Shown here: in pieces, positions 52,511-64,000 of the stretch
Layout: each line of letters opens with the position of its first letter
How positions within the stretch are numbered: position 1 is the stretch's first letter
From: an uncultured virus (IMG/VR IMGVR_UViG_3300002460_000023)
Lineage: Duplodnaviria; Heunggongvirae; Uroviricota; Caudoviricetes
Length of the DNA: 64,000 bases
Strand: one strand, 5' to 3'
IMG/VR virus record: IMGVR_UViG_3300002460_000023
Span: 1-64,000 of that record
The notes under the pieces: generated by a model
The model's input: the letters and a program-made list of their open reading frames with translations, nothing else
What the model was told of the DNA's origin: nothing
Databases searched by the model: none
Program-made: the position numbers and the translations under genes

Positions 52511-52945
52511 TTACCTTCTACTTGCGTTACTCCAGCTTCGCGGCGGTTGTGGAGCTGGCGGGGCATTGCCTGACCTTGCACTCGCTTCCCTGATCATCTG
52601 GCTAAGCTCACCGTGTATTACTTCAAAGCCCTGCACCACCACGAAGTATTCCTGCATAAACTTGTCAGCGTGTGGCCAGGAGAGCCGCTCTATCGTTGCC
52701 CCGCCAAAGCCCGTTGACCTTATCGCGTGCGAGTTACGGAACAACCAGAGAAGCCAACGGGTTCTACCGGTAAGGTAACTCTCGGGGCACATGTGGACAC
52801 TGTAAGGCCCCGCAAAGTGTGGCGGGTTCATCTTCTTGTGAAACCGCCCGTGACAGTTCCGCCCACGGTAGAGCTTCTCTTGTATACAATGCGAGCAAGG
52901 CCAGAACTCTCCGCCTAGGACCCAACGAGTGCCAACCTTAAATTT
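52511..52945 (-). CDS. Tail assembly chaperone frameshift extension (gpT-like)
   Basis: -1 frame open from the slippery site through MNPPHF to the stop at 52511. Confidence 0.7.
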   Translation of the reverse strand, partial: KFKVGTRWVLGGEFWPCSHCIQEKLYRGRNCHGRFHKKMNPPHFAGPYSVHMCPESYLTGRTRWLLWLFRNSHAIRSTGFGGATIERLSWPHADKFMQEYFVVVQGFEVIHGELSQMIREASARSGNAPPAPQPPRSWSNASRR

Positions 52946-53352
52946 CGGACGTCCCCAGCCGTCAGCACGCTCCAGTTGGCAATAGCCCGGCCGGTCTCGA
53001 TGATCAGGTCCTTATAGGGCGTACCCCAGAGCTCGCTGCCGGTGGCAATGTCCTCCCCGTTGAACTTCAGATTCTTGACACCCACGATGCCGCCGATGAT
53101 CTGTTGCTTGGTGATTTCCAGGTTGTTCTCATCATCAGACGGCATATCGTCCTCAGACACACCGCGCGGTTGCTTGAGCTGGAAGGCCCGGCGACTCCAC
53201 TCTTCAGAGTCCTGCATGGTGACACACTGAAGACGCATTGTGACTGGGTTAGCGTCAAGCCCCAGCTTGTAGTTGCTCCGCTGCTTCTCCCACGTCGGAA
53301 TGAAGTCGATGCACAACCCGTCAGACTGTTTCTCGACCTTGTAGTCGTACAT
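52915..53352 (-). CDS. Tail assembly chaperone (gpG-like)
   Basis: Between tube and TMP; SD AGGGGG before MYDY; slippery A AAT TTA near the 3' end. Confidence 0.8.
   Translation of the reverse strand: MYDYKVEKQSDGLCIDFIPTWEKQRSNYKLGLDANPVTMRLQCVTMQDSEEWSRRAFQLKQPRGVSEDDMPSDDENNLEITKQQIIGGIVGVKNLKFNGEDIATGSELWGTPYKDLIIETGRAIANWSVLTAGDVRNLRLALVGS
52939..52945 (-). other. Programmed -1 ribosomal frameshift heptamer A-AAT-TTA
   Basis: X XXY YYZ in the correct phase (CGA AAT TTA). Confidence 0.8.
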
Positions 53353-53406
53353 GTTCAACCCCCCTAACGGAGACGCAAATCGTGGACTCCTCCTGAACAT
53401 TTGTTT

Positions 53407-53460
53407 TATGAAGCAGGACGCCAGGAACGTCTTTTCGGTGATCAGCCTAGCCTCATAGAC
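53407..53460 (-). ncRNA. Three-way-junction RNA motif, copy B
   Basis: TATGAGGC-TA-GG(ctgatca)CC-GAAAA-GACGT(tcctg)GCGTC-CT-GCTTCATA. Confidence 0.7.
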
Positions 53461-53475
53461 TTAATACCAAGTAGT

Positions 53476-54633
53476 TCAAAATAGCTCTACGGTTATGTCG
53501 TTCTGCCCCGCGCTTGTGCTGAGCGCCCGACCAGAGGCCGACAACGTAACTTCTCCCTCAGCCCCCGGGTCCGTGATAGCGGGCACGTCCAACTCGCCCT
53601 GGTCCATCAGCACACGCAAACGCTTGGCCGCCGTATCCCCAGCCAACATCGTGATGTCCTGAGCGAGGAACCGTGCCGCCTCGCCAAAGATGTAGAAATT
53701 AGCTCTGGTGAGGTACAGCTCCAGCGTGAGGGACACTTCCCTCCGGCGATCCAGGATGATGGCCGTAGGCGTAGACTGGCCATATTCGTCATCCCGAAGC
53801 TGGAGGTTGTTGTTCAGCGTAACGGACGCCGAGATTATCGTAACCGCCACGGCGTTCGTCGTGAAGGAACCGGTAATGCCGTGCAGCGAATCTCCAACCG
53901 TGGTAACCGTCGGGGCAAAGGCGGTAACCGTCACACCGCTGGCAACCGTTGTCCGCAATGCCGGGGTGATGTGAATGGTCCCGTTGCTGCTGATCGACAG
54001 GATCTTGTAGCCCGTTGTGGCCGTAGAATCTCCAACCTGGATCAGAATGTCCTGGCTGAAGAAGTCGGCATCGGCGATTTTGATGTTCGTCACGTCCTTG
54101 TTCGCTGTTGCCGACAGAGTTGTCGTACCACCCTGCACGAAGCTCTTGCCAGGACCGCTGAACTCCACCGTGCTGAAGTCCGAGCCAGACATGTTCAGCA
54201 CCATCTGGTTACACGCCGCCCCGTAAACACCCTGTACGAAGTGCGCAGCGTGCTTCCAGATGCTCAGGCTGGGCAGATCATCGTCATCGGGGGTATACTG
54301 CACGGTACTGGTCAAACCGGCCGTAGCGTCCCCCATTGCGGCTTGGTAGAAGTCGGCCATGTCGGGGGCCGTACCAGCCACACCCGAAGGGGTTATGTAG
54401 CCACGGACACGCCAGTCCGCGCTCTTACGCCCGGAGAACCGGTTGTTCTGAAACGACCGGATACCGGTGGTATCGTCTCGCTGCAACCTTTCTTGTGCCG
54501 GGGTCAGCTCGATTTCCAGAGCTGAAAAGGAACCTGAAGTCGCAGGCATGACCGGAGTACCGTACGTCACCTCCGGCATAACCCAGCTCTTCCGATTCCA
54601 TCCAAACGAGCGGTTCGGTACGAAGACAGGCAT
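53476..54633 (-). CDS. Major tail tube protein
   Basis: EVTYGT, YGAACNQMVL, SASVTLNNNL, RREVSLTLEL; position before chaperone and TMP. Confidence 0.85.
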   Translation of the reverse strand: MPVFVPNRSFGWNRKSWVMPEVTYGTPVMPATSGSFSALEIELTPAQERLQRDDTTGIRSFQNNRFSGRKSADWRVRGYITPSGVAGTAPDMADFYQAAMGDATAGLTSTVQYTPDDDDLPSLSIWKHAAHFVQGVYGAACNQMVLNMSGSDFSTVEFSGPGKSFVQGGTTTLSATANKDVTNIKIADADFFSQDILIQVGDSTATTGYKILSISSNGTIHITPALRTTVASGVTVTAFAPTVTTVGDSLHGITGSFTTNAVAVTIISASVTLNNNLQLRDDEYGQSTPTAIILDRRREVSLTLELYLTRANFYIFGEAARFLAQDITMLAGDTAAKRLRVLMDQGELDVPAITDPGAEGEVTLSASGRALSTSAGQNDITVELF

Positions 54634-54634
54634 T

Positions 54635-54772
54635 TCAGGTTATCTCCTGACCCCCCAGGATTTTTGCCCTGTTTCTCATGCGACTATGTACAGTAGGATG
54701 ACACACCACACAAATAGACTCTAGGTTTACTGCTCTGTCATCGTGCTTATTGCCATTGATGTGGTGCACATG
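54635..54772 (-). pseudogene. HNH endonuclease core remnant
   Basis: Hand translation HVHHINGNKHDDRAVNLESICVVCHPTVH... in frame directly after the TAG of 54773..55036. Confidence 0.7.
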
Positions 54773-55036
54773 CTACTTCGTGGGTGCCTTCCTCTTTGCT
54801 ACTGCGGGCTCGGGTGGTTCAGAGGGCGGGGCGGCTGGTCGCTGCCCCGGCGTCTTGTCGATCCACATGATCTCCGGTTCCCCGCGACGCATCATCATGC
54901 CGTTCATCGCCAGCAGTTGCCCGGCCGTTGCCTGATCTACCATCACTTCCTGACCGTGCTGGACCCGTGCTACTCCCTGTTCCGCCTGCACGTTCCTTGT
55001 CGCTTTGCCCATGTACTGCAGGATCATCTTCGCCAC
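54773..55036 (-). CDS. Small hypothetical virion-module protein
   Basis: SD AAGGAGG before GTG. Confidence 0.65.
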   Translation of the reverse strand: MAKMILQYMGKATRNVQAEQGVARVQHGQEVMVDQATAGQLLAMNGMMMRRGEPEIMWIDKTPGQRPAAPPSEPPEPAVAKRKAPTK

Positions 55037-57425
55037 TCTGACTCACCTCCTTCAGCTCCATGATTTCGTAGATTCTACGCATTTCTTCTTCGTGGTTGTG
55101 GTATCGCTCTACAAACGCCCGGTACTGGTCACTGCGAACAGGCGTTTCACTGATGAGGCTGACAGCATCTGCTATGGTATCAAACACAACAGGCAAGTCC
55201 GCAAAGTCCTCCTGGCCTTCATAAATTTCACGGGCTCCAGGCCAAGCGTGCACCACAGGCTTGATACCCTTTGCCATCGCCTCAACTACGCTGTAGGGAC
55301 TACCTTCACAGATAGAGCAGTTGAGCACCTGCCCAATCTTGTGCTTGTCCAACGCCGCGTTTACATCTGTCTGCCAACCAACCCAACGAATGTTGTTGCG
55401 CAGGCCCATCTGCTCTACCATGTTCATCGCATATTCTTCAAGCTCTTGCCCCTGCCAACGTCCCATAACGGTCAGGGTGTACTTACTGTCCAACCGTACC
55501 AGTTCCAACAGAATCTGTAACAGCATCGGGATACCTTTCTTCCAGTTCAGGTATCCAATGTACACCAGATTATAGCGGTCATCTTTCCGCTGCTGGAAGT
55601 CCCACCGGTCTAGCTGAACACTGGAAGGAATTACATGCTCCTGACAGTTTCCAGTGATGTTACCAAAGCGGTGAGCCGCCTGCCGGATATGCTCGCTAGT
55701 GAAGATGATGTGGTCAACCTTCTTGAAGTCAACAGCCTGTAGCATCCCTTGGTAGGGTTCGTACCGGTGCACACGGCAGATAACACCAGCGTCAGGGTTC
55801 TGGCGAGTGGCCTTCACAAGGTTAGCGTCACCCCATTCGAAGAACAGCCAGTCAGCCCCACCAACAAACCGACTGTCGAAAGACTTGTATACTTCTACTT
55901 GGTGACCCCGTGCCACAAAGGCATTGATGATGGGTCCGCTGAAACTGCCAATAGCGTCGAACACGATGATGTTCGCACCGTTGGCCGCTTTCCTAGCGAG
56001 CACCCGGGCTTCAGCCAACCGCCAGAGGGCATGCGCCTCAGCATCTTGCGGCAGGTATTCCAGCCAGCGCTCCGCAGCAGAAAGGGTCTGCTCCCAGTTC
56101 TTCTGCTTCTCGTATAGCTGAGCAAGAAGCTTCCACGGGAGCCAAGTGTAGCACTCCTTCCGGATCGTTAGAATCGTGCTGGTAGGCAACTTCACGCTGA
56201 TCGCCTGTTTGAACCAGTGCTCTGCCTCCAGGAGGTCTTCACGGGCCTCTGCGATTTGACCCAACGAAATCAGCGTCTCCGCACGATACCAGCAGAGTTT
56301 TCTGGCTTCGTGTAGACAAACCAGCACACGCTCCACGACAACAGACTCTTCTTCCCCCCGCTGTGCCCCAAGAGACATTTCCAGTGTGGCCAACTGCTGC
56401 CAACAGTGATACTTGTAAGCCAGCGTTGGCGTTATCTTCGCCAGGTACAGGTACCACGCCTTGGCTGTTTCATACTCGTGGTGGTCCATGTAAGTGTTAG
56501 CAAGGTAGTAGGATGCCCGTTCGTCGAAGGGGTCCCGACCCAGCATCTGCAAGAGGTTAGCGGTATTCATTGTACCCCGCTGCACCGCCCGCTCCTGCTC
56601 CCGCGCCTCTGGCATCATGTGATAGAAGCGAATGACCGGGGCAAACACTGAAACGTTAGCAGCACCAACAAGCTGATGGTGCGTGTCATACCGGTAGAAA
56701 TGGTCCTGAATGTTCCTAAAGAGCCTGGGCTGTGTGAACACCATCCCTTGTTCTTCTTCGCTCTTCGGGTTCATCACAGTGGCCGCCATAACCACCGAGT
56801 AGGGAGCAGGCTCCTCACCCTTCTTGTGGTTTACGGCCCCCTCGGTGTAAACACGTATGAAGGGCAGGCTCGCGTTGTCAAGCTCCTCGTGCCCATCCAG
56901 GATCAGAATCCACTGGCCACGAACCTTGCGCTTGGCATTGTTACGCGCCCAAGCGAAGTCGTTCCGCCACTTGAAGCGAAAAACTACATCGCCAGCCACC
57001 AGCGCGACCTTCTCAGTGTCATCGGTACAACTATCATCCACGCCAATGACAACTTCGTCAACAACTTCACGGACGCTTTCTATGGACCGCGCCAGCGTGC
57101 GTCCTTCATTCTTGACAATCATCATCAAGGTAATGAAGGGGGCCACAATAGGCGTGTCCTTGAGAACCTCTCCCTCAAAAGGTAGAGGCCAGAACTTCAT
57201 ACCGTCGTAGTCAACCTTTGGCCGGGGATCATCGGCATCCAGCTCAGGCTGGAAACGCGGCCGGAGCTCATTGTAACGAGCAAGGTCTGCTTCTTGCGTT
57301 ACAAGTTCGCCTGCAAGAAACCTCTTGTGGAGCTGTGAATACTCCACACACTCTTGCGGCAGCGCCACCGCAAGGTCAGCCTTCTGCTCTTCAGCCCCTT
57401 CGTCCTGCTCAATCTCTTCGGACAC
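54819..57425 (-). CDS. Multidomain glycosyltransferase: GT2 (GT-A) + TPR + GT4-like (GT-B)
   Basis: MIVKNE...SCTDDT...WRNDFAWARN...WILILDGHE; TPR helices; IGYLNWKKG, EGSPYSVVEAMAKG. Confidence 0.9.
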   Translation of the reverse strand: MSEEIEQDEGAEEQKADLAVALPQECVEYSQLHKRFLAGELVTQEADLARYNELRPRFQPELDADDPRPKVDYDGMKFWPLPFEGEVLKDTPIVAPFITLMMIVKNEGRTLARSIESVREVVDEVVIGVDDSCTDDTEKVALVAGDVVFRFKWRNDFAWARNNAKRKVRGQWILILDGHEELDNASLPFIRVYTEGAVNHKKGEEPAPYSVVMAATVMNPKSEEEQGMVFTQPRLFRNIQDHFYRYDTHHQLVGAANVSVFAPVIRFYHMMPEAREQERAVQRGTMNTANLLQMLGRDPFDERASYYLANTYMDHHEYETAKAWYLYLAKITPTLAYKYHCWQQLATLEMSLGAQRGEEESVVVERVLVCLHEARKLCWYRAETLISLGQIAEAREDLLEAEHWFKQAISVKLPTSTILTIRKECYTWLPWKLLAQLYEKQKNWEQTLSAAERWLEYLPQDAEAHALWRLAEARVLARKAANGANIIVFDAIGSFSGPIINAFVARGHQVEVYKSFDSRFVGGADWLFFEWGDANLVKATRQNPDAGVICRVHRYEPYQGMLQAVDFKKVDHIIFTSEHIRQAAHRFGNITGNCQEHVIPSSVQLDRWDFQQRKDDRYNLVYIGYLNWKKGIPMLLQILLELVRLDSKYTLTVMGRWQGQELEEYAMNMVEQMGLRNNIRWVGWQTDVNAALDKHKIGQVLNCSICEGSPYSVVEAMAKGIKPVVHAWPGAREIYEGQEDFADLPVVFDTIADAVSLISETPVRSDQYRAFVERYHNHEEEMRRIYEIMELKEVSQSGEDDPAVHGQSDKERAGGTGSSTGPARSGSDGRSGNGRATAGDERHDDASRGTGDHVDRQDAGAATSRPAL

Positions 57426-57445
57426 CTTTGTGACCCCCCTACGTG

Positions 57446-57904
57446 TTAGACGTCAGAACTCTCGTGCATTGTTACTTCAAGCACGATTTCCACGGTACGC
57501 AGTTCCTGTTTCAGATTACCCACTATATCTGTTGAAATGATACGGAAGCTGCCGCAGAGGTTGTTAAGGCTCAAGTCCTTTACCCCGGCAGAGCGGTGTG
57601 TACAGATAGCCTTCTTCATGTCTGCCATGAAGAGCAAAGCTCTCTCGTTGGGGTGCTTTGTATCCTTGGTGTAACCCCACAACAGGAGTGTCCAGGCGCC
57701 CGTCCTATCTTGGTTGCCTATCTGCCCACCAGCGAAACGGTCGGTATCGATGAGAATGTAAACAACTGGAAAGTGATTGTGGTCTGTTGGCAGCTCAAAC
57801 TTCTTCCAATGAACTTCCTTCACCACTTCCGTGTAGGACCCGGTGCCGTCAATCTCTTCGAGCCGCAGCTCCAACTCGTCCAGTATGGCAGTGTGAACGC
57901 TCAC
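57446..57904 (-). CDS. Tail terminator / head-tail joining protein
   Basis: Position; FPVVYI and LNNLC patterns. Confidence 0.6.
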   Translation of the reverse strand: MSVHTAILDELELRLEEIDGTGSYTEVVKEVHWKKFELPTDHNHFPVVYILIDTDRFAGGQIGNQDRTGAWTLLLWGYTKDTKHPNERALLFMADMKKAICTHRSAGVKDLSLNNLCGSFRIISTDIVGNLKQELRTVEIVLEVTMHESSDV

Positions 57905-58473
57905 TTGGATAAGCTCGAAACAACGGTGCGGCCGTACACAGCAGCGAGAGTAGCATCAATGGATGCTTTGTTATCTTGCAAAGCCGGGCCTAGGAAGGGC
58001 CGCTTGGGCATGCGTACTTGCTTCACAAGAAGGAAGACAGGCTCACCCGTTTCCCCGTCGATGACAACATACCCGCTACCCGACGGCTGCACAAAGCTGT
58101 TGGTGAGCTCCCTAGGGCTCCTGTAGCCATCTTTGAGGGGTATTGCCAAATAGCTCTGATGCCTAGGGCGGATAACACCACCCTTTTCGTGAATTGCAGC
58201 GTACTTGGAATCCGCGATAACTTCAGCGATCATTCCAGTCGCTGTCATTCGTGGCGGGGGTGTTCTCAGACTGTTGTAAAGCCTTTTTGTAATGACATCT
58301 AGCCGTGTCGGTCTGGGCCCCCGCAGATACCGATGCCGAGCCGTGTAGACAACCTTCTTTTGAATAGCCACTAGGGCAAAAAACATGTTAGCACGAAGCC
58401 TTACATCCAGCAGCTTCACAAGAGAAGCGTACTGGGGGCCAACCAGATTGCCCCTGATAGTGAGCGTCAGCAC
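57901..58473 (-). CDS. HK97 gp10-like / virion morphogenesis protein
   Basis: TKRLYNS, KYAAIHEKGG, MPKRPFLGPA. Confidence 0.75.
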   Translation of the reverse strand: MLTLTIRGNLVGPQYASLVKLLDVRLRANMFFALVAIQKKVVYTARHRYLRGPRPTRLDVITKRLYNSLRTPPPRMTATGMIAEVIADSKYAAIHEKGGVIRPRHQSYLAIPLKDGYRSPRELTNSFVQPSGSGYVVIDGETGEPVFLLVKQVRMPKRPFLGPALQDNKASIDATLAAVYGRTVVSSLSK

Positions 58474-59477
58474 TAGAGAACCCTTCCAGCGTAGTCACGG
58501 ATTACCCGAATAATCCGCTTAGGCACGTCCCCAGCCAGATAGTTGATAGTGCCCGGCTGACCGCTGGTACTGCTGATACCAAACCGGTTGGAACCACCCC
58601 CAGTTCCGCTTGTCTGTTCGTACAGGTAGGCAACCCACTCGCAAGCCGCCCACTTAAGGTCATCGGGAACCGTGCCAGAGGGAGTGTTCGTTGTATAAGC
58701 TAGCGCCCCTGTCTTGTTAGCGGCCGAAGTAGCACCCGTGTCAAAGCCAATGAGAGAGGCAAAATTAGCGTGCGCGGCAACCCATCCGGAACCAGCCGTA
58801 TGGAGCATTACCTCAAAGGTAGAGCCCGCGCTCGTAATCGTGAATTTACGGAGACCGGAGTCGTAGGTTACTGTAAACGTATCTGGCGTCAACGCCGCTG
58901 TCAGGGCCACATCAATGGCCGCTGCCAGTTCTTCCGCTGTATAATCCTGGCCAAAGTCAGGCGGGGGGATTGTTGCATTGACCCAAGAAGGTGTCACGGC
59001 AGTACGGTTAACACGCAACAGGTCGTTGAAGCCGGCTTGCACCTTGTAGAGGGCATAACCACCGACGTAGACACACTTGATATTCTGCTTGGAAGGGTAG
59101 AACATACCCCCACCGATGCGCTGCCCACCACCAAGCAGCTTGACCCAACCGTAAGGCGTGATGACATAGGTGTCTGTAGCGAGGGCTGTCGAGTAGTCTA
59201 GGCCCGGATCATCATACAGGTTTGTCACTGACACAACAGGCTTACCCTTCAACGGGATGCTGTAACGCCACGTCTCCCCGTCGAAGAATTCGGTGTGTTC
59301 CCCACGGATAAACGACCGGCCGGTTATTCTCTCAACCTCGCCAGTCACGATGTTAATGAGCTGCGTAATGGTCGTATCCTTGTCCTCGTCAGCATCGGCA
59401 ACCGTAAACCCGCGATGCCTAGAGACTTCGGCGAGGCTACAAAGAGCCCGTGGACTGATTGCGATTGAACTTGCCAT
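58473..59477 (-). CDS. Head-tail adaptor (gp6-like) with inserted domain
   Basis: LCSLAEV...VERITGRSF...PVVSV...YVGGY and VPDDLKWAACEWVAYLY. Confidence 0.8.
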   Translation of the reverse strand: MASSIAISPRALCSLAEVSRHRGFTVADADEDKDTTITQLINIVTGEVERITGRSFIRGEHTEFFDGETWRYSIPLKGKPVVSVTNLYDDPGLDYSTALATDTYVITPYGWVKLLGGGQRIGGGMFYPSKQNIKCVYVGGYALYKVQAGFNDLLRVNRTAVTPSWVNATIPPPDFGQDYTAEELAAAIDVALTAALTPDTFTVTYDSGLRKFTITSAGSTFEVMLHTAGSGWVAAHANFASLIGFDTGATSAANKTGALAYTTNTPSGTVPDDLKWAACEWVAYLYEQTSGTGGGSNRFGISSTSGQPGTINYLAGDVPKRIIRVIRDYAGRVL

Positions 59478-59507
59478 TGCCTACCCGACAACCCCCATGC
59501 TCTGCTT

Positions 59508-60002
59508 CTACTGAGACGCAGCCACCGCTTTGGCAGCCAGCTTTGCCATGATGAAGTCCACCAGCATTTCCTTACCCCCGGCCGCCGCAGTACCGCGGGG
59601 AACCATTTCACCTTCTCCGGCTTCCTGTGCGGCCATTTTTCTGAGAACGTTCAAGCTCTTCACCAACAGGTCCTCACGGGTAACCCCTCCTGGCAGGTCC
59701 CCGGCGTCAACGACGGACAGTGCTTCGCCGTTTGTTCCGCCGCCTGCGTCCTGACCCACGGTTTCCACACGCGCCGCCTTGTTGCCAATCCAGAAGTTCT
59801 TCGGAAACTTCTGCATGAGGACCCGTGTCTGCTGGGGTGTCAACATCTGGCGGCGAGTAGCTGTGTCGAAGAAAATCCCGGATACCCCACCGTTGTAAGC
59901 ATCCCGGCCGTAGCCCGGCTGGAAGTTCACGGGAACCATACCATCAGGGTCCAGATACATCTGAATCAGCTCTTCCACCGCTTCTACGCTCAGATCAGAC
60001 AT
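59508..60002 (-). CDS. Hypothetical protein with Rho-N/HeH-like C-terminus
   Basis: DLLVKSLNVLRKMA...GGKEMLVDFIM. Confidence 0.55.
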   Translation of the reverse strand: MSDLSVEAVEELIQMYLDPDGMVPVNFQPGYGRDAYNGGVSGIFFDTATRRQMLTPQQTRVLMQKFPKNFWIGNKAARVETVGQDAGGGTNGEALSVVDAGDLPGGVTREDLLVKSLNVLRKMAAQEAGEGEMVPRGTAAAGGKEMLVDFIMAKLAAKAVAASQ

Positions 60003-61026
60003 TAACCTCTACCTCCTGATTGGTTTCCTTGTCCTCACGCTTCTCTACGGGTTCTGGCTCCTTGACCCCCAAAGCCGACAGCATGGCGTGTCGAGCTTGG
60101 GCATAGCTAAACGTGCTGTGAACCGCCCTGTAAGCAAACTCGGAAACTTCCTTGTAGAAGGCGGTGTCCATCGCCAGTTGAATTAGAGCTGAAAACTTGC
60201 CTTCAGTGTCTTCCCGGTCGAAGCAAATCCGCGGGAAAAGCCGCCGCATCGCATAGCTGCTCGCGTTGCCTACACAGGGCACGCCAAGAGCAGCACACTC
60301 GCCGACGACACGCCCAAAGATGGAACACGTGTGCGTGTCAAAGACAACCCAGCTCTTGGCAAGGCGGCGAATCCAGGCCGCGTAGTTTTCCTGGCTCAAA
60401 AACCAGTCAAACATGTTGGGCAGGCGGTTTGTCAGTTCTTGGGGTGGCGCCACCATTGCCAGAGACACTCCGTTGCCAACGTGTTTGCCAAAGCCCTCGC
60501 TCAGCCGCTTCTGCACGGCACTCGTTAGAAGCCACGCCTCCGAAATCTGCATATCGTAGCGATGCACTACGGAATGAATGTTACGCGGGCGCTCGTTATA
60601 GCGCACGGCAAATGAAGAAACCGTAGTGCTTATCGGATGGGGAATAACGTGGACGGGCCTGTGCAGTGCTGTTTCCAGCAAGTGAGCCCCACGCGGCTCA
60701 ACGTGGAAGATCACGTTGGCCTTATCCAGCTCTCTAAGCCATAAGCGAGCTTGGTCGAAGTGCCTGGACCACGAATCTACCGCGTAGTCGCAGTTTACTA
60801 CAAGCTGGCAAGAAGTGCCACGGCAAGCCTCGGATAGCTCGCCAAGAAGCCCAAGGCTTGCCGTGGTCAGGTTCAGATGAACAGCATCGAAGTTTGCCGG
60901 TACCTGCTTTGGCGGCATCGAGCCTACCTGACCCCGCATGGCGCTAGGCCAGTGAAACAGACCCGATAGAAGCAGTCCCTCATCAAGGGCAGGCTCGGGC
61001 TGGTAGCTGTAGAGCAAGTAGCGCAT
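59995..61026 (-). CDS. GT-B glycosyltransferase
   Basis: VIPHPI; SIFGRVVGECAALGVPCVG; C-terminal FYKEVSEFAY. Confidence 0.75.
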   Translation of the reverse strand: MRYLLYSYQPEPALDEGLLLSGLFHWPSAMRGQVGSMPPKQVPANFDAVHLNLTTASLGLLGELSEACRGTSCQLVVNCDYAVDSWSRHFDQARLWLRELDKANVIFHVEPRGAHLLETALHRPVHVIPHPISTTVSSFAVRYNERPRNIHSVVHRYDMQISEAWLLTSAVQKRLSEGFGKHVGNGVSLAMVAPPQELTNRLPNMFDWFLSQENYAAWIRRLAKSWVVFDTHTCSIFGRVVGECAALGVPCVGNASSYAMRRLFPRICFDREDTEGKFSALIQLAMDTAFYKEVSEFAYRAVHSTFSYAQARHAMLSALGVKEPEPVEKREDKETNQEVEVNV

Positions 61027-61043
61027 TGAATAGACCCCCGTGT

Positions 61044-61090
61044 TCAGTTAGTTAGCGGTAGCTTTACTTTCGCCACCGCTAACTAACTGA
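61044..61090 (-). terminator. Long intergenic hairpin
   Basis: 16-bp perfect inverted repeat tcagttagttagcggt/accgctaactaactga. Confidence 0.65.
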
Positions 61091-61099
61091 TACGCGCTA

Positions 61100-62194
61100 T
61101 CAGCTCACCAAGCGGGCGCCGTCCTGGATGCGGAAGCCCCACTTGACCAGCACGACCTGATTCTCCGTGTAGGTCGTCCCACCGGGCATGAAGGCGATGA
61201 TGCGGAGGTCCTGCGTTGTGGAACCCGCATCGTTCGTCAGCTTGTGCCCAGTGAACCAAATGAGGGCCTTGTCTTCAATGACCGTGGACCCCAGCGGGAA
61301 GTAGCTGTAGCCGTCCACCTGGACCCACGCCACGTCGTAGTCGGCCCCGCCAGTACCCCCGATGGCCACGGGGCCAAGGTGGTTGGAACCCGCCGCTGAA
61401 GCTGCGGCGACAGTGCCACCCGGCTGTGCCAACGCCGCGATGTTTCCACGGCTCAACGTTGAGCCACTGGTGATGACGAACGGCTGGCAGCGTCCGTAGA
61501 CCGGGCCATAGCCGTTGCCGAACTTGTAGCGCACGATCTCATCGACGGACATGTCCTCACCAGCAGCCACGTCGGCGTCCACTTCCAGGCGGATGGCTTC
61601 CACCTTGTTGCGCGCGAAGCTGGTGATGGCCACTTCCAGCCGCTGCCAGTTGGTACCGGCGAGCATGGCGGGCACGTTAACAGCCGTCTGCCACACACCG
61701 TCGTTCTTGATGTTCAGCTTCAGATCGCCCGCGGTACCGAAGTCAGCCGTGGTGTCCGACTTGGCCCACCACCCCAGGAAGTCGGTGTCTTCCCAGTTGG
61801 CTGACCCAACTTCCTGAGCCAACCCGGTACCGGCACCCGTCGGAATGGCGGCCCCACCGTCGATGTCGTTCGTTGAGACGTACACCGTCCCCTCATCGGC
61901 GGCCAGGATCTGGGCCGTGGCCGTGATCTTGAATCCAGCGCCAACGACCGCCGTGGCAACCGTGGCCACGTCCAGCGTACCGCTTGTCGTTTCATCCCAC
62001 GTTGCGACCGCCCCGGCGTGCACCAGACGAATAAAGTTGATACCGTTGGCGAGCCGGTGCTCATCCAGAAAGTCCAGCAGCCCTTCAGCGCGGTCGTTGT
62101 CGTTGTCGCTGACCTTGAAAGCATTCCGCAGGCTGCCGACGTGCGACCGAACACGCGCCAACTGGTTGGAAACCCCTGCTTGGCCGTAGCCCAT
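61100..62194 (-). CDS. Putative capsid decoration/fibre protein with carbohydrate-binding-like domain
   Basis: Near MCP; LGWWAKSD...NWQRLEV...SVDEI jelly-roll-like region; C-terminal VAWVQVDG beta-tulip-like region. Confidence 0.6.
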   Translation of the reverse strand: MGYGQAGVSNQLARVRSHVGSLRNAFKVSDNDNDRAEGLLDFLDEHRLANGINFIRLVHAGAVATWDETTSGTLDVATVATAVVGAGFKITATAQILAADEGTVYVSTNDIDGGAAIPTGAGTGLAQEVGSANWEDTDFLGWWAKSDTTADFGTAGDLKLNIKNDGVWQTAVNVPAMLAGTNWQRLEVAITSFARNKVEAIRLEVDADVAAGEDMSVDEIVRYKFGNGYGPVYGRCQPFVITSGSTLSRGNIAALAQPGGTVAAASAAGSNHLGPVAIGGTGGADYDVAWVQVDGYSYFPLGSTVIEDKALIWFTGHKLTNDAGSTTQDLRIIAFMPGGTTYTENQVVLVKWGFRIQDGARLVS

Positions 62195-62302
62195 TGTTAC
62201 TTTCCCCTTTCGCGCCTAAATCTCTCTTACGAGAGCCGTGGGCGCATTTTGGAGGGTCTAACCTGTTTGCCGGGGCAAGCCCGCCCGGCTTCGGGTTTCC
62301 GC

Positions 62303-62506
62303 TTACGCGACGGTAAACGTGTCTGTAGAAGGTGTGTAAGTGCCCGTTGTTGCTGCGGGGTTATCCGGTGGTAACCCGCTGACCAGCGTGAAGTCAATCG
62401 TGCCATCTGTGTTGATGGTGTAAGTGTCGATGTTGTCCGGGTGCGTGTCCAGACGCTTTGCCAAAAACCACTGAGGACGCTTCTGCAAGGCGGCGATGGC
62501 GGACAT
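62303..62506 (-). CDS. Small protein, paralog 2
   Basis: DNIDTYT...TIDFTL...ATTGTYTP. Confidence 0.7.
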   Translation of the reverse strand: MSAIAALQKRPQWFLAKRLDTHPDNIDTYTINTDGTIDFTLVSGLPPDNPAATTGTYTPSTDTFTVA

Positions 62507-62515
62507 TTCGACCTC

Positions 62516-62728
62516 TTACGGTGCTACCAACGTGTGAGTCTGCTTGTGGGGGTTGTAGGTTCCCACTGTAGCCGTGCCGCCATCCAGAGCCCCTGTCAGC
62601 GTGAAGTCGATCGTATGCCCAGAAGGGTCGGCCGGCAACGTGATGGTAGCGATGTTATCAACCGGAGTGTTGATCGTCCCCGCGATGATGCGCTTCCACC
62701 GGCGTTCATTGTGGCTGATTGTTGGCAT
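62516..62728 (-). CDS. Small protein, paralog 1
   Basis: DNIATIT...TIDFTL...ATVGTYNP; SD GGGAGG. Confidence 0.7.
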   Translation of the reverse strand: MPTISHNERRWKRIIAGTINTPVDNIATITLPADPSGHTIDFTLTGALDGGTATVGTYNPHKQTHTLVAP

Positions 62729-63458
62729 TGCTGCCTCCCTGTTTCTTCTTCGTTGACCAGAAAACCTTGCTCCTAGCTTCTGAGACGCTTTTGCTGATCC
62801 GTGCCTTATGCTCCTCTGTCAGAGGCTTACCACCAAAATGGATCCGTGCATGGCAACGACGGCATACGAGCTTTAGCTTGCTTATTTCGTTTTTGTTGAT
62901 GTCACCATCAAGGTGATGAACCTCAAGCCTGCTTTCGCTGCCATCGTGCCCGCACAATTCGCAGCAGCCGCCAGACCGCTCCCAGACGTCTTTCCGAATG
63001 TAGTGAAATTCCCGAGGATAGTACTTGTGGGACGGGTACCTCTCGGGTGTGACACCGCCTTTCCAGTTGGGATTGCCTTCAGCCACGATGCTAACCCTAG
63101 GCCCGCGCATGCTGGCGATGTGCTCTTTCGTCTTCGCTCTACCATACAGCGGGTGGTCGGGGCCTTGCCGGCTCCTCATGGGGTCTTGCCGCATCTTAGC
63201 ACGGGCTTCTTCGCTATGCTTCTTACCCGCGAAGGGGTTACCCGTACCAGTACAGCCTTTCTTACGACAGGCTGCTGAACAGAAGCGATAACCCTCAGAC
63301 TTGATCCGGACCGCTGGGTAAACCCCAGGAAACCCCGCGCCACACACTTCACAGCAGATACGCAGCCTACCATACTTCCTGAAGTGCATTTCCAACAGTG
63401 GCTTCCAGTTGGGATTCTTAGTGCCAGCAACCTTTCGTGCAAACGCGCTATTACCCAT
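62706..63458 (-). CDS. NUMOD3/HNH homing endonuclease
   Basis: NPFAGKKHSEEARAKM, NPNWKGG, LEVHHLDGDINKNEISKLKLVCRRCH, TEEHKARIS. Confidence 0.9.
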   Translation of the reverse strand: MGNSAFARKVAGTKNPNWKPLLEMHFRKYGRLRICCEVCGAGFPGVYPAVRIKSEGYRFCSAACRKKGCTGTGNPFAGKKHSEEARAKMRQDPMRSRQGPDHPLYGRAKTKEHIASMRGPRVSIVAEGNPNWKGGVTPERYPSHKYYPREFHYIRKDVWERSGGCCELCGHDGSESRLEVHHLDGDINKNEISKLKLVCRRCHARIHFGGKPLTEEHKARISKSVSEARSKVFWSTKKKQGGSNANNQPQ

Positions 63459-63493
63459 TGCGTAGTCTCCTCTGGTAGAGACCTGGAAGGTTA

Positions 63494-63553
63494 CTGTGAA
63501 GGGCAGGCACTCCAGAAAGTGCTTTTCGGTAGCGAACCTAGCCCTTCACAGAC
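63494..63553 (-). ncRNA. Three-way-junction RNA motif, copy A
   Basis: CTGTGAAGGGC-TA-GG(ttcgcta)CC-GAAAA-GCACTT(tctg)GAGTGC-CT-GCCCTTCACAG. Confidence 0.7.
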
Positions 63554-63575
63554 AGCTACCACTAGGTAGCGCCTA

Positions 63576-64000
63576 TCACGATGCGAAGTCGAAGAGGTAT
63601 CCGCAGGGAAGGTCTGCGGTCGGCCGGACACCCTTGAAGTCGCGACGGAGCGTCGCGATCATGATGTTCCGCTGCTGCGACGGTCGGTTCTCCATTTCCA
63701 CGGTCACGGCACGCTTCTCACCGAAGACGAAGCTGGGCCGGTGCACGAGCAGGCTCTGCGTCTTCGTCAGGGTTGTGCCGTCGTAGATGCCCGTAGCGTT
63801 GAGATCTGACCGCACGAACTCACTGACCACGATGTTCGACCCGTCGAACGATCCCATCGTGCCGCTGAAGATGGTCGCCCGAGACCCGAAAACGTCCTGC
63901 GTGATGACCTCGGCCAAGCTGAGCATCCGCAGGTACCCAGCCATGGAAACGATCCAGACCAAGTCCTCCGGCCGCATCCCGTAGCGACCCATCGCCTTGC
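63576..64000 (-). CDS. Major capsid protein (HK97 fold), C-terminal part; runs off the window
   Basis: MGRYG..PEDLVWIVS...YLRML...GTMGSFDGSNIVVSE...ATLRRDF. Confidence 0.85.
   Translation of the reverse strand, partial: KAMGRYGMRPEDLVWIVSMAGYLRMLSLAEVITQDVFGSRATIFSGTMGSFDGSNIVVSEFVRSDLNATGIYDGTTLTKTQSLLVHRPSFVFGEKRAVTVEMENRPSQQRNIMIATLRRDFKGVRPTADLPCGYLFDFAS

Follow-up and report, generated by a model that had tools for sequence, protein, structure and literature searches.

Why does an uncultured tailed phage carry the same small structured RNA at two points of its late gene module, each time in the short gap behind a gene whose product is needed in bulk? The phage is IMG/VR record IMGVR_UViG_3300002460_000023, and the window analysed here comprises bases 1-64000 of this 74,860-base viral record. 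One element (copy A) lies between the major capsid protein gene and an HNH/NUMOD3 homing-endonuclease-like gene, the other (copy B) between the tail tube protein gene and a putative tail assembly chaperone gene; all genes in this part of the window lie on the minus strand, and the RNA sense of both copies is likewise minus. An earlier note, made from the sequence alone, had described these stretches as two copies of a three-way-junction RNA, and a direct reading of the sequence confirms the positions, the stem sequences and the shared junction string that it gave. Phages need hundreds of capsid and tube subunits and only traces of chaperones and selfish nucleases, all off one late transcript. 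We propose that both elements are probably cis-acting leaders, in which the junction, the loop of its third stem (L3) and two downstream sites would throttle translation of the next gene.

Two members of a catalogued RNA family

Copy A matches the Rfam family RF02996 (int-alpA) at 36.8 bits and passes the curated gathering score of 35.8 bits; copy B reaches 33.1 bits, under that cut-off (E = 3.4e-5 in a search of 401 nucleotides, nt). We also searched the genome with a covariance model, R1, built from 66 aligned viral copies, none of them out of the window (filters off, 74,961 nt). It returns copy A at 51.3 bits (E = 4e-13) and copy B at 35.2 bits (E = 3e-8), and the third-ranked match scores only 11.2 bits (E = 0.55), so that the genome holds exactly two copies. 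The predicted placement of copy B in the family rests on its R1 score together with its identical junction. Both copies align to the RF02996 consensus with UA, GAAAA and CU as junction strands; these strands are the same in copies A and B, and the stems P1 and P3 differ in sequence but pair. The window contains two matches to the relaxed pattern CTAG..CGAAAAG..CCTG where 0.03 would be expected (at least two in 0 of 100 shuffles), and the rest of the 74,860-base genome contains no others.

Both elements are thus int-alpA-type RNAs of a catalogued family, and the fold itself is not new. The earlier note had foreseen that a match to Rfam would remove the novelty of the structure, and the Rfam scan that it proposed bears this out. 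The int-alpA motif is reportedly among the candidate RNAs of Weinberg and colleagues from 2017 (PMC5737381), whose main text does not give the name. Other Rfam rows at E up to 10 are microRNA and snoRNA models far under threshold.

Comparative support for the junction

Relatives were gathered in viral contigs with a strict sequence pattern, which alone finds at least 121 stretches and is present in more than 120 contigs. An alignment of 93 sequences (91 viral ones with distinct motif cores, at least four P1 pairs and enough flank, plus the two window copies) was made with plain MAFFT, with no prior fitting to structure, and RNAalifold predicts P1, P2 and P3 on it. Paired cells amount to 92.5% against 65.7% in shuffles, and the covariation score is 0.597 against 0.137; the observed value was attained by 0 of 500 shuffles in either case. 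Sliding the pairing partners by 1-3 columns lowers pairing to 34-46% of cells. The stems of the junction covary, and the earlier view of a functional structured RNA with conserved junction letters and compensatory stem changes, drawn from two copies, holds across the larger set.

The junction is compact and has nine unpaired letters that hardly vary, features reminiscent of ribozyme cores, and many small ribozyme classes were first discovered beside phage and mobile genes. The element might serve to part the two cistrons, either as a small self-cleaving ribozyme or as a dedicated site of nuclease processing. We consider this very unlikely: apart from the conserved junction nothing speaks for a ribozyme, and the known self-cleaving ribozymes yield no Rfam match around either copy at E up to 10, while junction strand lengths of 2, 5 and 2 are unlike those of the hammerhead core.

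The downstream gene as fixed partner

The downstream start codon lies 30-49 nt past the P1-closing G in 88 of 115 relatives. An upstream open reading frame (ORF) was found in 97 of 116 unique instances, among the matches listed (the set that also underlies the site statistics below), and its stop falls 10-39 nt before the motif, as marked by CTAG, in 65 of these 97. From this arrangement the fixed partner of the motif is taken to be the downstream gene, each copy being a predicted 5' leader of the gene that follows. The earlier note had instead pointed to a position downstream of a top-abundance structural gene; with the flanking genes tabulated, the fixed relation turns out to be to the downstream start and not to the upstream gene.

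A Pfam scan of 113 downstream ORFs gave 16 with DUF1376, 15 homing-endonuclease-like (HNH, HNH_3, NUMOD3/4, AP2, DUF559), six with HTH_36 or DnaD_N and six antirepressors (ANT, AntA, Rha, P22_AR_N), as well as single cases of integrase, Dam, glycosyltransferase, helicase, tail endopeptidase and class-V aminotransferase (Aminotran_5), and three weak matches below cut-off (tail tube protein, HTH_10, LapD/MoxY); 61 were without a family. The idea that the RNA is a leader travelling with HNH/NUMOD elements therefore holds for 15 of the 113, the rest being replication, antirepressor, tail and unknown genes. The context that gave the family its name is absent: one relative of 113 leads an integrase gene and none an AlpA-domain gene, and the two phage contexts here are capsid to HNH and tail tube to chaperone. 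The name int-alpA fits the first-found subfamily, not the whole family.

Upstream, the scan covered 67 of 95 ORFs, those in loci with long flanks. Twenty-three have a PHROG family, a mix of regulators, annealing proteins, portal, terminator, holin, spanin and tail proteins that includes one major head protein (locus L052) and one major tail protein (L027). With upstream families this mixed, a place behind a top-abundance structural gene is not the rule. Both layouts of the window do recur in unrelated contigs: L052 has the order major head, leader, HNH_3/AP2 gene, and L027 the order tail terminator, major tail, leader, tail assembly chaperone, tape measure. The window's own addition is modest, consisting of two more family members, two recurrent placements and an exploratory hint on gene class that is described below.

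Position might also suggest a role for the upstream message. P1 and a U-rich stretch could stop some polymerases or block 3' exonucleases, so that the downstream gene would be represented by less RNA or the capsid and tube mRNAs would be longer-lived, and both copies do lie close behind the stop of a highly expressed gene (stop-to-P1 gaps of 24 nt in copy A and 18 nt in copy B). At least 5 U in the 8 nt directly after P1 are present in 51 of 116 relatives, and the Rfam consensus has a U-run there, so a termination role is possible in part of the family. In both window copies, however, the best 8-nt window after P1 holds only 3 U and a terminator scan finds nothing, on which grounds a plain terminator was rejected for these two, in agreement with the earlier note. 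Attenuation of transcription, or stabilisation of the upstream mRNA at its 3' end, would moreover leave the complementarity of L3 to its sites and the fixed start-codon distance unexplained, and the upstream genes are heterogeneous; we regard this explanation as quite unlikely.

Melting of P1 by ribosomes that terminate upstream is not relied on here, the two gaps being probably too long. A perfect 6-base-pair (bp) hairpin, GCUACC / GGUAGC with a 4-nt loop, occupies 63555-63570 (minus strand), between the capsid stop (63578-63576) and P1 of copy A. Elsewhere, one small viral contig has two leaders 1.1 kb apart (L050 and L051) that head consecutive nuclease-like genes (DUF559, NUMOD3); these are tandem leader-plus-nuclease units.

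The P3 loop and its two downstream sites

What the leaders share, beyond the junction, is a relation between L3 and the sequence that follows P1. In 78 of 116 relatives, the 90 nt downstream contain a stretch of 6 nt or more that is Watson-Crick complementary to L3. The same is true of 1215 of 13340 cross pairs in which L3 is set against another instance's downstream sequence, a conservative control because the cross pairs include relatives. Two or more separate L3-complementary sites of at least 5 nt are present in 74 of the 116; the control figures are 9.2% for 2272 cross pairs, 5 of 115 when L3 is compared with the instance's own upstream sequence and 6 of 116 for same-sense matches. L3 and its two sites covary.

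The sites have a regular position with respect to the start codon. The last L3-complementary site ends 1-12 nt ahead of the start in 71 of 97, and in the 59 instances with two sites before the start the first (site A) mostly begins 7-13 nt past P1 and the second (site B) follows 5-10 nt beyond it. Site B mostly stops 6-10 nt short of the start codon and falls on the 5' half of the Shine-Dalgarno sequence (SD). In 38 of these 59, site B is enclosed by a hairpin with 5 bp or more, compared with 29% of cross controls. In the subfamily nearest the Rfam consensus (44 loci, 33 unique), L3 is by eye AAACCCUA and site A is UAGGGG, and a 4-bp hairpin 2-4 nt before the AUG carries GAGGGU in its loop. 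The consensus-like subfamily thus shares the design, and the conserved purine tail that ends the Rfam model is site A; the model stops at this first downstream site and is without the pairing of the P3 loop as a pseudoknot, the second site and the bracketing hairpin (P4).

The same elements can be traced in the two window copies (Table 1), both sites clearly in copy A, but in copy B only the decoy clearly and the second site weakly. In copy A, L3 is UCUGGA (63516-63511), and a duplex scan of the 44 nt after P1 has site B as its best and site A as its second-best partner; only 0.2% of random windows from this genome offer two partners of such strength. In copy B the best downstream partner of L3 is site A, within the SD-like run CAGGAGGAG, with a duplex strength that is equalled by 7% of random windows.

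Two side observations concern these loops and sites. The two copies have similar P3 loops, UUUCUGGA at 63511-63518 in copy A and UUCCUGG at 53421-53427 in copy B, both of which hold CUGG; given this likeness the copy B loop could pair with site A of copy A (CCAGG), and cross-talk between the leaders is conceivable. In addition, the decoy of copy B is a strong SD-like run, AGGAGGAG (window 53364-53395, minus strand), and 8 nt on an out-of-frame UUG opens a 4-codon mini-ORF that closes with UAG (53366-53364), overlapping the SD hairpin of the chaperone gene. This mini-ORF could be a coupling device or chance.

According to Weinberg et al. (PMC5737381), their method cannot separate motifs of single-stranded DNA from RNA motifs, and part of the family leads mobile nuclease genes, which might suggest a structure in single-stranded DNA and not an RNA, for example a recombination or replication signal of mobile cassettes. 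The orientation of the motif is nonetheless always that of the downstream gene, at a fixed distance from the start codon and with overlap of the SD, and the inner stem pairs in the pair-type lists of the 93-sequence alignment include 15 G.U or U.G against one A.C, an excess that points to folding of the sense strand. A DNA signal is in our estimation extremely unlikely.

A proposed translational throttle in cis

The leader most likely acts as a brake on translation of the gene behind it, since L3 can pair with the ribosome-binding region there. We hypothesize that the three-way junction holds out L3, the sequence of which is gene-specific, and that L3 may pair either with the decoy, site A, a few nt past P1, or alternatively with site B, which overlaps the SD and usually lies in the P4 loop. 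Pairing of L3 with site B, together with P4, would hide the ribosome-binding site (RBS), and L3 on the decoy would leave the RBS freer. The balance between sites A and B would then set how often the gene is translated on a long late transcript that it shares with the heavily translated capsid or tube gene. The predicted anatomy is that of a three-element control, with an RBS (site B and P4), an anti-RBS (L3) and a competitor (site A); repression by pairing, relief by the decoy and an output set by their balance are what we infer from it. The earlier suggestion that the RNA steps expression down from high-copy to low-copy genes gains in this way a concrete basis in the complementarity of the P3 loop to the ribosome-binding region, with the throttling itself still put forward conditionally.

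Several observations weigh against this reading. The minimum-energy fold of each copy is an irregular hairpin, below the junction by 3.1 kcal/mol in copy A and 2.0 kcal/mol in copy B, so that support for the junction is comparative and not energetic. No 5-nt site is present in 17 of 116 relatives and only one in 25 of 116, and the U-rich tails described above are found in many. The site count gave 0 for both window copies, since the rule that extends P3 swallowed their short loops, and their sites rest on the duplex scan instead. In copy B, candidate site B is weak, matched by 18% of random windows, and the gene has two candidate starts: ATG 53352, with the GGGGGG SD, or ATG 53400, which is without an SD and would turn the strong copy B site into codons 2-4. 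We prefer ATG 53352 as the likely chaperone start. A literature search on int-alpA and RF02996 found no paper on function, the mentions merely listing the motif or meaning the gene order. Finally, a pure loop-pairing model leaves the near-invariant junction letters unexplained.

The balance of the two sites may also be linked to gene class. In an exploratory comparison, 11 of 15 nuclease leaders and 4 of 5 antirepressor leaders pair more strongly in the RBS zone than in the decoy zone, as do only 5 of 14 DUF1376 and 1 of 6 HTH_36/DnaD leaders. Nuclease and DUF1376 leaders differ (Mann-Whitney p = 0.014) in a test that ignores kinship, many DUF1376 leaders being close kin, and nuclease leaders do not stand apart from all others (p = 0.30). 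That the decoy-to-RBS balance follows gene class is an exploratory hint. The window copies fit the pattern: in copy A, the HNH leader, site B is stronger than site A, and in copy B, the chaperone leader, the decoy is stronger than site B.

As to the junction letters, autoregulation by the gene product is unlikely as a common mechanism, because the downstream proteins are too diverse for one junction. It is more likely that the invariant junction fixes geometry or binds a factor common to all hosts. A bolder version of this idea, which we hold as doubtful, would make int-alpA a portable translational rheostat that is widespread among phages and mobile elements. The junction would sense something that all hosts share (candidates being ribosomal and RNA-chaperone proteins, nucleases, metal ions, small molecules and temperature) and so choose decoy or RBS for the programmable P3 loop. 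Nuclease and antirepressor genes would then be biased 'off' and replication and chaperone genes 'on', and in this phage the device would govern how much chaperone is made per tube protein and how much nuclease per capsid protein, in addition to the frameshift in the chaperone gene pair (G/GT) described below.

If the cis-acting throttle that we favour is real, a small portable RNA whose target is switched by altering one loop and two short sites would solve the problem of unequal product ratios in a general way. Such an RNA would also account for the harmless arrival of homing-endonuclease and other add-on genes between essential, highly expressed genes. The function of the family, once worked out, would annotate a very common phage regulatory element and may offer a compact programmable part for translational control.

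Comparison with known systems

With int-alpA as catalogued, the window copies share the three-way junction, the UA / GAAAA / CU letters and the conserved purine tail after P1. They differ in context, lying in a phage head and tail module and not in an integrase-alpA spacer, and copy B scores below the cut-off.

The nearest functional parallel is found in homing endonuclease genes of the T4 type, for which Edgell, Gibb and Belfort (2010, PMC2988022) describe RBS-sequestering hairpins that keep these genes silent on read-through transcripts, with I-TevI, I-TevII, I-TevIII, segB and mobE as examples. As in their account, a nuclease gene here sits among highly transcribed phage genes and is predicted to be poorly translated by way of RBS structure. 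Folding predicts a 7-bp hairpin in copy A, with its 3' arm overlapping GAGGAG, and a 5-bp hairpin over GGGGG in copy B, in which the SD may be held. The T4-type hairpins are described there as simple and local, and as relieved by a late promoter inside the hairpin (PMC2988022), whereas here a conserved junction would bring in a distant loop as anti-RBS, along with a decoy copy of the target, and a promoter scan is without an internal promoter. That scan finds no sigma-70-like site at either copy, although sigma-70 type may not be this phage's. One candidate was rejected, a promoter of copy B's own with the extended -10-like TGGTATTAA at 53468-53460; its start would cut P1, and the promoter scan is without it. 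A literature search found nothing that joins homing endonuclease, ribosome binding site, three-way junction and bacteriophage.

Three-element translational switches, with an SD, an anti-SD and an anti-anti-SD, are known from riboswitch expression platforms and attenuators. The logic proposed for the leaders is the same, in that L3 would pair with the RBS or with a competitor; here, though, the competitor is not a different sequence but nearly repeats the target.

A second parallel leads to a different explanation. The c4 RNA of phages P1 and P7 and the CI RNA of satellite P4 are structured RNAs on the same transcript as their targets, with loops complementary to two sites, one of them an RBS. 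The likeness to our leaders lies in these in-transcript target sites, RBS included, and in the occurrence in phages and P4-like elements. The leaders might, in the manner of c4 and CI, be processed antisense RNAs, cut out of the polycistronic transcript for example by RNase P or RNase E, that act as small RNAs on the downstream sites in cis or on other copies. Rfam types RF02996 as 'Gene; sRNA', L3 finds two complementary sites on its own transcript just as the c4 and CI loops do, 6 of 113 relatives lead antirepressor genes, the class controlled by c4, and the CUGG in both loops could let copy B reach the CCAGG of copy A. Set against this, the leaders have one loop with two sites and not two loops, the Rfam C4 model (RF01695) finds no match around either copy at E up to 10, and L3 is tuned to its own downstream sequence throughout the family, so that action in cis is enough. 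We therefore hold antisense action to be unlikely. A tRNA-like element was likewise considered and dropped, as ARAGORN finds none in the window, a result that also speaks against the antisense reading. By eye P2 of copy A is slightly like a T-arm, but it has C where the A of the T-loop is conserved.

Neighbouring genes in this phage

The flanking genes are as the earlier note had them (Table 1). The gene led by copy A exceeds the cut-off for PF07460 (NUMOD3) and falls slightly under that for PF01844 (HNH); across copy A its upstream neighbour is the gene for the major capsid protein, and upstream of copy B lies the tail tube gene. Copy B precedes the first of two small ORFs ahead of the tape measure gene. 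The second, T, is open in the -1 frame at 52511-53011 and shares sequence with the last part of the G ORF (stop 52917-52915); a canonical slippery heptamer, A-AAU-UUA, lies at 52945-52939, within the overlap. Neither ORF has a Pfam or PHROG family match. The G/GT frameshift arrangement is that of siphophage tail assembly chaperones, and we take the gene after copy B to be the predicted chaperone G/GT.

Table 1. Coordinates of the two leaders, their downstream sites and the adjoining genes (window positions; energies in kcal/mol).
Feature	Position	Strand	Evidence or remark
Copy A three-way junction core	63494..63551	-	Rfam RF02996 36.8 bits; R1 51.3 bits
Copy A P1	63551-63541/63504-63494	-	11 bp; sequence reading
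Copy A J1/2 UA	63540-63539	-	sequence reading
Copy A P2	63538-63528	-	sequence reading
Copy A J2/3 GAAAA	63527-63523	-	sequence reading
Copy A P3	63522-63507	-	loop L3 centred on 63516-63513
Copy A J3/1 CU	63506-63505	-	sequence reading
Copy A site A (putative decoy) UCCAGG	63482..63487	-	L3 duplex -7.1
Copy A hairpin P4	63464..63483	-	7 bp including two G.U; RNAfold -8.9
Copy A site B CCAGA	63475-63471	-	in P4 loop ACCAGA 63476-63471; L3 duplex -8.3
Copy A Shine-Dalgarno GAGGAG	63472-63467	-	8 nt before ATG 63458; overlapped by P4 3' arm
Copy B three-way junction core	53407..53457	-	Rfam RF02996 33.1 bits; R1 35.2 bits
Copy B P1	53457-53450/53414-53407	-	8 bp, one G.U
Copy B P2	53447-53437	-	
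Copy B GAAAA	53436-53432	-	
Copy B P3	53431-53417	-	loop L3 53426-53422 (UCCUG)
Copy B site A CAGGA	53395-53391	-	in SD-like run 53390..53396; L3 duplex -8.2, best downstream partner
Copy B hairpin UCUCC / GGGGG	53359..53373	-	5 bp; RNAfold -5.4
Copy B SD G-run GGGGGG	53364-53359	-	six nt before ATG 53352; held in 5-bp hairpin
Copy B candidate site B UAGGGG	53366-53361	-	L3 duplex -5.1, three G.U pairs
Major capsid protein gene	63576..64000 (63576-64988 in whole record)	-	stop TGA 63578-63576; PF05065 E 5e-12; phrog_10 E 1e-21
HNH/NUMOD3 homing-endonuclease-like gene	62706..63458	-	ATG 63458-63456; phrog_1271 and 19 further HNH PHROGs
Tail tube protein gene	53476..54633	-	stop TGA 53478-53476; PF18906 Phage_tube_2, 47.3 bits (cut-off 27)
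Putative tail assembly chaperone G	52915..53352	-	likely ATG 53352-53350, alternative ATG 53400; position between tube and tape measure

For the capsid protein no close relative was found in viral contigs, and the capsid proteins of the nearest isolates are less than 30% identical. The contigs of four partial matches over 61800-64000 are low-depth fragments identical to this phage, with no joint across the HNH gene, and the region behind that gene (62150-62760) has no Rfam match at E up to 1. No RNA run among those listed contains the sequence of this phage. The roughly 500 bases from the HNH stop to the next long ORF (62195-62705) hold small ORFs only, without a PHROG family, and the GC skew becomes positive there; this stretch could mark the distal end of a nuclease cassette inserted here. 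The next long ORF, of 364 amino acids (61100-62194, minus strand), has 60-65% G+C against 52-58% in its neighbours and no Pfam or PHROG family.

A protein of 868 amino acids (54819-57425, minus strand) has GT2 and GT1 glycosyltransferase domains and weak TPR repeats, all under the Pfam cut-offs. Its gene sits in the virion module, between the tail terminator and tail tube genes, and in one relative (L009) the leader likewise heads a glycosyltransferase gene.

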